A stretch of DNA of 63,163 nt, the filler included, from Ionaspis alba (lineage: Eukaryota): NCBI GenBank assembly GCA_964255285.1. It is 9 parts of 9 records of this genome, joined end to end, with 100 filler letters (N's around TTAATTAATTAA, not from the genome) between each part and the next. Parts side by side here need not be neighbours in the genome. Positions count along the whole stretch, not along the records: positions 1 to 6,953 come from CAXUUL010000870.1; 8 more parts are not named here. One strand, 5' to 3'. A program made the translations under genes and the position numbers. Below, one piece after another: positions 4,034-6,044 of the stretch; within the stretch, counting starts at the first letter, position 1; the number at the start of each line of letters is the position of its first letter. The notes under the pieces are model-generated. The model searched no databases. It saw only the letters and a program-made list of their open reading frames with translations, and had not been told where the DNA came from.

Positions 4034-6044
4034 TTACTCCTCCTTCGCCTCCCTACCCGCGATGTTCCTCCCACTCGAGAAGCTACCAGTATCCAGATTC
4101 TTCTGCAATTCCGGCAACGTCTGTTGCTGACTGGCGCTCATCTGCGCCAGCCCTGCTTGCTTCAATGGCCCGTGTTCAGACTGTCCCGAACCAGAAGTAT
4201 CAACGACCTGCTTCGCATGCCTGTTCTTCCCATACCTGTTCTTCCCATGCCTGTGCTTCCTATGCCGCTGCTTCGCATGCCTCTTACCCACCACGTTCGT
4301 ATCTCTATACAACAGGTACTTCTCTGCAAGACGTCGCTTGATCATATCCAGTCTCGCAATATCTCGTGGCATGGATACAGAGCGTCCATGACTTAGCCCG
4401 GATGTGAAAGGGCGGTGGTGGAAATGGTTAAATAGTTTAGGTAACCGATCTTTTTGTCGTCCCAGGTAGGTCATAAGTCCGGCATCTCTCCGATGGGCTG
4501 ATTGCTGGGCTTGCGGCGCGAGCTTGCTCGAAGCAACGTTCCCGCCGATATTCCCTGTAGTTTCAATTCCAGTCGTGACCATATCACTTCCATGCTTGGT
4601 GAAAAAACCTTTAACACCCTTAACAGCACTCAGGACCAAGGCGGGATCAGCCCCAGCCCTGGCTTCGGCCATTGCCAAAGCTTCACGCTTGGGGTGCTTG
4701 TGGTGTTTGTGGTGGTGCTTCAGGGGATTTGGAAGTATGCTGGAAGCAATGCACGCGGCATCCACCGCAACGTCAATGCCGGGGATAAAGCTGCCAACAG
4801 CGCAGCCGAGACTTTTGCCAACACCCTTTTTGCTCCGTTTGACAGGATCAGTATGTGGTTTTACGGCCATGACCTGTGGATTAGAATCATAAGGCTGTTT
4901 TGAGGCTACTCCAGGTTTGGAAGGTTCAGAAAATCGCTTCTGGTGAAGTGTATCCATTCGCGGTCGTATTCTGACATCCTCGGGACGTTGAGCCATTGCC
5001 TTGAATTGCGAAATTCTGTTCATTCCTGAGATCCGAGTTTTGGGACCCATGGCTCCAGCTCGGAGCCTTTGGGTACCAGATTTCCTGGATGCGCCCACCT
5101 GGTTACGATGTCCTCTTTGCGCAGAATAGTGTTGTGCGATTTTGGCTTCCAAGTCTTCTTGAGCTTCGCGCTTCGACCTTTCTTTCTTATCTTCCTTCTG
5201 GTCGTCCTTCTTGTCGTCTTTGGTTTCATCTGTCTTAGCAGACTTCTTCTCGTCCTTCGAATCCTTCTTGGGTACTTTAATGGCGCTGTCAATGCCAAGG
5301 CAGAAATTCTTGACCTGCTTCTTCTTGAATCCTTCGGGATACAGGCAGAATGACATGAGTTCGATGGGCTGGCCATCAGTCTGGGCTCTGACGGCACGGA
5401 TTGCTGTTGGCTCTTTCTCCAAGGCCATTAATTTCCAGGCGTCGAAGAGGTAACCGGCAAGCACTTCAGGCTTGATCTCCTTTTTTGGTGCAGTGAAACG
5501 AGCAACGACGCCTTCCACCTTCTGTTTGCCGCGATGAAGGAAGCCTTTGTGGATCTCCTTGTTAAGGGTGATGGTCTTCTGCGTGGAGACGTGATTGAGC
5601 AACGCAGCCATCTGCTTTTTACCAACAGCCTTTGGCTTCTTGCCCTGCGCAGGTTCGAGTTGAGCAATAGAAGCATTGGTAATGGTTACACAAATGTGCT
5701 TCTGGTCACAGAGACCGGCACTAGAGAAATGGTTGTGGGACTTAGCACCAATGTCCTCGCTCGCCTCTTCGGAGAACTTCTGATACTTGTCGAGCATCTT
5801 CTTGTAGCGCTCTGCTTGGTGGCCATCTGCTTTTGGCCATTCTGTAGGGTCTGCTCCGGTTATGTCCTGCTTGAGCGCCTGGACCTCGGTAAATTTCTTG
5901 GAAGCGTCCTCTTTCTTGCCCTTAGCCGGATCAGCGAGCACTGACGAGGCAAGAGTGGTAGAAATGAGGAGCAGGAGCTGTGGTTGTGTCAGCTAGTGCC
6001 TCTCAAGATAGTCTTGGATTGTCCAAGCATACCGCGTGTTTCAT
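4034..6044 (-). CDS. Secreted Lys/His-rich polyprotein with multiple Kex2-type sites (orphan, putative peptide precursor)
   Basis: Exon 1 6033-6044 (ATGAAACACGCG), intron 5978-6032 (GTATGC...GCTGAC...CAG), exon 2 4034-5977. Spliced start MKHALLLLISTTLASSVLA-DP reads as a signal peptide. The long open frame contains KR-EA, KR-SK, KR-EALAMAEARAGADP and RR-DA. Confidence 0.8.
4208..4282. repeat. Five-copy 15-bp coding tandem repeat (RHAKQ/RHRKH/RHGKN/RYGKN/RHAKQ)
   Basis: ctgcttcgcatgcct gttcttcccatacct gttcttcccatgcct gtgcttcctatgccg ctgcttcgcatgcct. Confidence 0.85.

Follow-up and report, generated by a model that had tools for sequence, protein, structure and literature searches.

A candidate Kex2/Ste13-type pro-peptide junction in the predicted disordered tail of a putative secreted protein of Ionaspis alba

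Stepwise removal of X-Ala/X-Pro dipeptides by dipeptidyl peptidases matures promelittin and insect antimicrobial-peptide precursors. We analysed a junction of similar layout in a stretch of DNA from the lichen-type ascomycete Ionaspis alba (assembly GCA_964255285.1; 63,163 nt, hereafter the window), where a minus-strand open reading frame (ORF) encodes a KR dibasic site, seven alternating X-Ala/X-Pro dipeptides and a predicted peptide of 50 amino acids (aa). The closest described fungal system is prepro-alpha-factor of Saccharomyces cerevisiae, which has, according to passages of PMC6339444, the same succession of signal peptide, glycosylatable pro-region, and KR followed by X-Ala dipeptides that Ste13 takes off, with Kex1 trimming the basic residues at the C-terminal end. 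Similar in outline are the Kex2-processed repeat proteins (KEPs) of Le Marquer et al. 2019 and Umemura 2020, precursors that fungi secrete and cleave at KR/RR according to the descriptions excerpted from PMC6339444 and PMC7329392; some KEPs carry a Ste13 XA/XP signature (PMC6339444, in part). That signature is defined in sections of PMC6339444 and PMC9769878 as XA/XP repeats after KR/RR, and a passage of PMC9769878 states that Ste13 trimming of such motifs was proved by peptidomics in a yeast host. The same source in part describes Ece1 of Candida albicans, a non-repeat secreted precursor from which Kex2 releases different linear peptides, one of them, candidalysin, bioactive.

The locus resembles each of these systems incompletely. 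Prepro-alpha-factor and the other ascomycete alpha-pheromone precursors contain several near-identical short peptides, whereas here a single non-repeated 50-mer lies among unrelated fragments, a folded domain of ~210 aa takes the place of the short pro-region, and the dipeptide runs are longer (seven dipeptides here, and up to 15 in the family member P0017). Ece1, to our knowledge, has neither a large folded domain nor a Ste13 dipeptide run, and the lytic character of the window peptide is unsupported. With promelittin-type precursors the locus shares an acidic, alternating X-Ala/X-Pro pro-sequence directly ahead of the mature N-terminus; that system, however, is an animal one with no sequence relation, and the window peptide lacks strong charge or amphipathicity.

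An initial annotation of this region had described the KR, seven in-register dipeptides, a 50-mer and a closing RR-DA. All are present, on the minus strand, which it had left unstated. It also overlooked the context, as the junction falls in the middle of a ~650-aa protein with a large folded N-terminal domain. The open frame comprises 652 codons from stop to stop (4034-5992, minus strand); residue numbers below follow this frame (P0001), and database proteins are likewise cited by P numbers. In the order of translation, the junction consists of the following elements.

4685-4690, minus strand: KR (aa 435-436), predicted Kex2 site, with KR/RR at the matching place in P0003, P0004, P0006 and P0007
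4643-4684, minus strand: seven dipeptides EA-LA-MA-EA-RA-GA-DP (aa 437-450), predicted Ste13-type substrate, read from sequence and codons
4493-4642, minus strand: predicted released 50-aa peptide (aa 451-500), read from the sequence and without predicted structure
4487-4492, minus strand: RR (aa 501-502), predicted C-terminal Kex2 site, read from the sequence
4481-4486, minus strand: a single DA dipeptide after the RR, read from the sequence

We read this stretch, with a probability of roughly 0.6, as a pro-peptide junction that belongs to a secreted pre-pro-protein and lies in its disordered C-terminal tail. Composition offers no ready account of it. Alanine and proline together make up 14.9% of the ORF protein, and among 20000 shuffles of its residues an X-[AP] run of at least seven dipeptides arose anywhere in 16 and a run of at least five in 728, while a run of at least seven placed directly after [KR]R arose in 0/20000. 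Chance does not explain the KR-dipeptide junction. The six Ala codons of the run differ (GCT, GCA, GCC, GCC, GCT and GCT), and Tandem Repeats Finder (TRF) reported nothing across 4643-4686; the two-residue period is therefore kept at the protein level and is not that of a microsatellite.

We compared the junction with its counterparts in related proteins. A word-indexed protein search recovered six homologues, two of them named, from the lichen fungi Icmadophila ericetorum and Circinaria calcarea. A family profile search found no longer relatives in the length band 1877-5000 aa, and at near lengths it returned only the six proteins already known, low-complexity words crowding the candidates. 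When the N-terminal domain (aa 30-240) served as the query of an exhaustive HMMER search, 38 cluster representatives were recovered at E<=1e-3, of which 31 passed 1e-10 and 14 passed 1e-30. These 38 divide into 19 long forms of 335-1072 aa, the window's protein among them, and 19 stand-alone domains of 141-288 aa.

The junction was inspected in the seven closest long homologues (P0003-P0008 and P0010). The initial annotation had made its reading depend on the dipeptide register being kept in orthologues, and in five of the seven it is: after KR or RR comes an X-[AP] run that keeps register throughout and leads straight into the corresponding peptide with its hydrophobic start, with six dipeptides in P0003, five in P0004, two in P0006, six in P0007 and three in P0010. 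Asp-Pro closes the run in four of these five; that of P0010 ends in Gly-Ala, with Asp-Pro inside the run. The remaining two depart from the pattern. P0005 is partly off it, with three dipeptides followed by six off-pattern residues, and P0008 has no recognisable counterpart of the junction, although runs of 11, 3 and 4 dipeptides stand elsewhere in that protein after dibasic sites.

The association of dipeptide runs with dibasic sites is family-wide. We surveyed 18 long proteins, leaving out P0002 (a duplicate), P0014 and P0018 (short tails) and P0022 (a different tail). In this set, [KR]R stands directly ahead of 184 of 14533 positions (1.27%), so that about one of the 80 X-[AP] runs of at least three dipeptides would be expected to begin directly after such a site; 23 do. 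For runs of at least five dipeptides the count is 11 of 19. The spacer and the peptide also differ in their rate of change. P0003 and P0004 are 78% identical overall, and a 30-column window over their spacers, at 0.40 identity, is among the least conserved, while the next 30 residues, the start of the peptide, are at 0.87. Although insertions and deletions separate the two spacers and the dibasic site has shifted, each of them keeps full register. A fast spacer ahead of a slow peptide is what one would see where a disposable pro-sequence precedes a product under selection. Taken together, the conserved KR/RR sites with in-register runs and the family-wide enrichment mean that alpha-factor-type maturation by Kex2, Ste13 and Kex1 is well supported by comparison.

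A protein processed in this way would have to enter the secretory pathway, and the gene model suggests how it may do so. The ends of the gene are as follows.

6033-6044, minus strand: exon 1, an ATG (6044-6042) plus three codons, start of the predicted signal peptide; read from the sequence and resembling the start of P0005
5978-6032, minus strand: putative 55-nt intron, GT...AG with a CTGAC branch-like site, read by eye
5933-5977, minus strand: remainder of the predicted signal peptide, a hydrophobic core and small-residue c-region with predicted cleavage before Asp-Pro, from hydropathy
4034-4036, minus strand: in-frame TAA closing the open frame, read from the sequence
3890-4033, minus strand: 48 in-frame codons past the TAA, encoding a Cys-loop motif, from by-eye comparison with homologues

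Splicing of the intron (6032-5978) would be in phase 0 and join exon 1 to the codon at 5977, so that the stop closing the frame upstream of 5992 is removed. The leader of the spliced protein runs from a basic residue through a hydrophobic core to an end of small residues, and residues 4-19 have a mean Kyte-Doolittle hydropathy of 2.07. The Icmadophila homologue P0005 has a closely similar start, and a methionine followed by a hydrophobic stretch forms the N-terminus of many family members. From these features we infer a secreted pre-pro-protein whose predicted signal peptide is reached through the 55-nt intron, and the four-codon first exon with its intron appears to be the true gene start. 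The database protein P0002, identical to the window's, has its start at an internal GTG, taken as Met, and no signal-peptide leader, and thus looks like a prokaryote-style gene call.

At the other end of the gene, the Cys-loop motif encoded past the TAA is the extreme C-terminus of P0003, P0004, P0006, P0007 and P0008. The TAA at 4034-4036 could be a truncated allele, a site of read-through or a base error. Removal of this stop by an intron was considered and rejected, since the sole GT...AG pair visible by eye is too short, or else shifts the frame with loss of the motif.

Several observations weigh against a processed and functional precursor. With the in-frame TAA the C-terminal motif conserved in the family is lost, and the gene may thus be in decay in this genome. 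Few independent lineages are represented, P0003, P0004 and P0007 being close relatives. A pairwise search of the window tail against P0003 gave no significant alignment over the peptide; the tail aligns with P0006 (BLASTP 2e-07), collinear through a Cys-loop, a His-rich stretch, the Asp-Pro and the peptide start, and the main high-scoring segment pair between P0006 and P0003 in turn runs through the peptide. As the tail is significantly similar only to P0006, the window's link to the P0003 group is transitive and positional. The C-terminal boundary of the peptide varies as well: from the peptide start to the next [KR]R there are 50 aa in the window, 178 in P0003, 181 in P0004, 53 in P0006 (where the site is KR), 55 in P0007 and 22 in the last of the series. 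The genes KEX2, STE13 and KEX1 were not seen among the 36 ORFs scanned in the 63-kb window. The ORF has eight [KR]R matches, counting overlaps, where its Lys and Arg composition predicts ~7.5, so that dibasic sites alone carry no signal. Finally, 57 of the 80 X-[AP] runs in the survey lie away from [KR]R; some of these are plain Ala/Pro-rich stretches counted in both registers, and several follow a single Arg.

The last two points favour an explanation without processing, under which the tail is an unprocessed, disordered part of a secreted or wall-associated protein and the run a low-complexity spacer that stands beside KR by accident. The tail is indeed disordered in the model and rich in low complexity. 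Nevertheless, we regard this explanation as unlikely. Run starts directly behind [KR]R exceed expectation about 23-fold (23/80 against 1.27%), none of the 20000 shuffles reproduced the junction, and spacer lengths among relatives shift by whole dipeptides only, the dibasic site moving along with them.

The pro-peptide reading leads to a proposed order of events modelled on alpha-factor. The features in the sequence, their departure from chance and their conservation are shown by the analysis, and we infer each enzymatic step and the existence of the released peptide. The signal peptide, judged from the sequence and its orthologues, would bring the protein into the endoplasmic reticulum, and the N-terminal domain, with its four Cys residues and N-glycosylation sequon, is predicted with high confidence to fold. 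In the late Golgi, a Kex2-type convertase would cut after KR436 and RR502. A Ste13-type dipeptidyl aminopeptidase would strip the seven X-Ala/X-Pro dipeptides stepwise and halt at the N-terminal Ala-Leu, and a Kex1-type carboxypeptidase would remove the C-terminal Arg-Arg. The cell would thus export a linear peptide of ~50 aa, alongside the N-terminal domain and the remaining fragments of the tail. The acidic spacer would serve as a disposable pro-sequence, and the selected part may be the first ~14 residues of the peptide, with their hydrophobic and small-residue pattern and one conserved basic position.

The initial annotation went further and proposed that the released peptide is a cationic, amphipathic, membrane-active helix. 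On this view the 50-mer, or its first 18 residues, would be a helical antimicrobial or cytolytic peptide that an acidic pro-sequence keeps harmless until late secretion. The idea has some attraction. The processing signals are real and conserved, the dipeptide spacer is net acidic while the first 18 residues carry a charge of +3, and the helical hydrophobic moment over the first 14 residues reaches 0.41-0.55 in the window and five relatives. There is also a fungal precedent for a Kex2-released cytolytic peptide in candidalysin, as described in part of PMC9769878.

The properties of the peptide do not bear this out. The 50-mer has a net charge (K+R-D-E) of only +2, from four Lys, one Asp and one Glu, with two His besides, and the charge of the first 18 residues, +3 in the window, is -1, -1, +2, -1 and +2 in the five relatives; the cationic character is thus not conserved, and the label fits weakly. 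A hydrophobic-moment calculation, which the annotation had proposed as a check, gave 0.343 for the first 18 residues on the Fauchere-Pliska scale against a shuffle mean of 0.203, and 1964/20000 shuffles reached the observed value; the best stretch of 11 residues has a moment of 0.52. The Lys/Gly/hydrophobic periodicity that had been taken for a helix turns out to be VKG-VKG, with a period of three residues, not the 3.6 of a helix, and a tandem duplication of 9 nt at 4607-4625 (TRF score 31, 2.1 copies) creates it. The 50-mer contains seven Gly. A PDB sequence search with it returned one chance-level match (E 0.13), with no solved peptide alike.

Structure prediction points the same way. In a full-length AlphaFold2 model built from eight sequences, aa 294-544 have a pLDDT (the per-residue confidence) below 50, at about 30, and aa 297-543 are modelled without secondary structure. 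The tail that holds the junction is thus predicted to be disordered and hence accessible. The model has one low-confidence helix, at aa 544-581, which spans the first part of a His/Lys/Arg/Asn-rich tail stretch encoded by a 15/30-nt tandem repeat at 4208-4282. The moment, the +2 charge, the seven Gly and the model without a helix together leave the membrane-active amphipathic helix unsupported, and we consider a lytic product quite unlikely.

What the sequences suggest is a more modest peptide: a short, weakly amphipathic, small-residue-rich pattern is conserved at the predicted peptide start. It takes up the first ~14 residues of the 50-mer, and the rest is variable and rich in Gly, Thr and Gln. 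By analogy with what has been suggested for other fungal precursors that bear a Ste13 signature, our best guess is that the peptide would have a non-lytic extracellular role, in signalling or surface association, and would not be a classical cationic pore-former. Of the activation that had been proposed, the Kex2/dipeptidyl-aminopeptidase part retains its footing in the sequence signals, the conserved register and the predicted signal peptide, and the antimicrobial product is left unsupported.

A different question is whether the tail, processed or not, is the part of the protein that matters. The regions between the signal peptide and the junction are these.

5273-5905, minus strand: folded N-terminal domain (aa 30-240) with four Cys and one N-x-S sequon, from AlphaFold2 and HMMER
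5174-5272, minus strand: K/D/E-rich linker (aa 241-273), with longer equivalents in all long homologues
5168-5173, minus strand: first KR site (aa 274-275), followed by EA and kept at the linker end in P0003-P0008
4691-4834, minus strand: 48-aa segment (aa 387-434) between KR385 and KR435, a Cys-x16-Cys loop with a His/Lys-rich end, read from the sequence

The N-terminal domain was modelled by AlphaFold2 from a 40-sequence alignment with a mean pLDDT of 95.0 and a predicted template-modelling score of 0.92, and its single N-x-S sequon falls in a conserved TNAS motif. Pfam has no family for the window ORF, and none for the domain as it occurs across the 40 aligned members; three of the 40 had one incidental match each (PF05887, PF21827 and PF23357; E 1.3e-4 to 5.5e-3). 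Foldseek with the domain model gave 0 matches at E<=1e-3 in the PDB or BFVD, the ESM Atlas returned no usable match for the domain or for tail residues 387-552, and a PDB sequence search with the family profile gave only chance-level matches to the low-complexity part. Among the weak Foldseek rows from the PDB were Zt-KP4 (8acx_G), a tandem DUF26 protein (6grf), ginkbilobin-2 (3a2e) and Y3 (5v6i). The KP4-like effector 8acx_G was the row of best probability, at 0.80, with a template-modelling (TM) score of 0.54 normalised by target and 0.33 by query. As the best E value of these alpha-beta sandwich structures of KP4, DUF26 and Y3 type is 0.042 and their query-normalised TM at most 0.33, membership of a KP4/DUF26-like fold was rejected for want of a significant match, and we keep the likeness as a lead and not as a classification. 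The N-terminal domain is therefore best described as an undescribed family with a high-confidence predicted fold.

Such a domain might itself be the functional product, with the tail and its peptide serving as a pro-region or carrier and being degraded after cleavage. Half of the cluster representatives (19/38) are stand-alone domains, secreted and ~250 aa long, without a tail, which indicates that the domain works on its own; it is by far the best conserved part of the protein; and different lineages carry unrelated tails, as in P0022. The tail segments behind the spacers, however, are 0.8-0.97 identical between P0003 and P0004, matching parts of the N-terminal domain itself, and conservation of this order is not expected of a discarded pro-region. 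We find this account very unlikely, and it is compatible with the same Kex2/Ste13 processing, so that it is a rival on function only.

Other parts of the family's tails merit description. In P0022 (708 aa) the same N-terminal domain is fused to a Gly-rich unit of ~60 aa that recurs about six times, each copy closing in a short Cys...Cys-Pro motif; here another lineage has a true repeat-type tail. After the first KR, P0003-P0008 carry 10, 10, 3, 3, 10 and 11 in-register X-A/X-P dipeptides respectively, and the window one. Shortly downstream of this site a Phe-Gly-Ala/Ser-Met...Pro motif, noted by eye at ~4990-5020 (aa 326-335), recurs in most long members (P0003, P0006, P0008, P0009, P0011-P0013, P0015, P0017 and P0029); the window has Lys where the motif of the others has Gly. 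The KR-flanked 48-aa segment at 4691-4834 is collinear with the Circinaria homologue P0006 in the same BLASTP alignment (2e-07) and absent from P0003. It is a candidate for a second released peptide. Its Cys-loop (aa 387-434) looks by eye like the C-terminal Cys-loop encoded past the stop; the similarity did not pass a shuffle test, and we do not claim it.

A precursor of a dikaritin/ustiloxin-type peptide that is synthesised on the ribosome and modified after translation (RiPP), or a repeat-type KEP with a repeated core as its product, would share the signal peptide and Kex2 sites common to those precursors (PMC9769878 and PMC12048977, in part) but is barely credible here, as there is no repeated core (of 28 tail-fragment pairs only one, at 3/200 shuffles, came in at 4/200 or below, unremarkable for 28 tests) and no DUF3328/UstY, tyrosinase or methyltransferase among the 36 window ORFs, with the flank past the gene's 3' end, only ~4 kb of window, little sampled for tailoring genes.

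Membership of the individual classes was rejected on the same features. The defining repeated core of KEPs is absent from the 28 pairs formed by eight tail fragments, the post-stop segment included, and TRF found only short local repeats in the gene. An alpha-pheromone precursor would have a repeated short pheromone-like core, which is lacking. A dikaritin-type RiPP is set aside as there are no repeats, and no UstY/DUF3328 Pfam family occurs in the 14 ORFs within 22 kb or in 22 further ORFs. Over the whole window (1-63163), none of the 36 ORFs scanned belongs to a secondary-metabolite cluster or RiPP tailoring family; they are of housekeeping type instead. They include an RPE65-type oxygenase, an SRA-like ORF, CPSF73, protein kinases (one with a response-regulator receiver), a leucine-rich-repeat protein and Sec10, as well as eIF2B-epsilon, Sld3, Rad51, an AlaDH/PNT-domain protein and a Lyase_1 protein.

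The pro-peptide precursor that we favour works like prepro-alpha-factor and the KEPs with a Ste13 signature; like Ece1 it is a non-repeat polyprotein, to which is added a large domain of an undescribed family. Full-text literature searches, which covered listings, the starts of abstracts and passages, found no paper describing such a precursor in lichens. A survey of lichen RiPPs mentions, in the passages seen of PMC12048977, only genes with a signal peptide and Kex2 sites but without repeats that lie inside RiPP clusters. Surveys of Kex2-processed precursors that are based on repeats will probably have missed this one, as it has none, judging by the definitions given in parts of PMC6339444 and PMC9769878.

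The peptide signals and weapons of lichen fungi are almost unknown. This family offers a concrete and testable set of peptides, predicted to be secreted and with their termini predicted exactly, and also a confidently folding secreted domain without a match in Pfam, the PDB or BFVD. Much more speculatively, and quite improbably in its full extent, the family may represent an undescribed class of secreted polyprotein precursors of lichen-forming, and perhaps other, fungi, which combine a novel domain, possibly of toxin or lectin type, with Ste13-matured peptides; the conserved peptide behind the Asp-Pro would then be bioactive in the symbiosis, as a signal for, or a membrane-active agent directed at, the photobiont or competing microbes. 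If the peptides are not made, the locus is a warning against reading an antimicrobial peptide from a helical-looking string. If they are made, they would be candidates for communication or defence in the lichen symbiosis.

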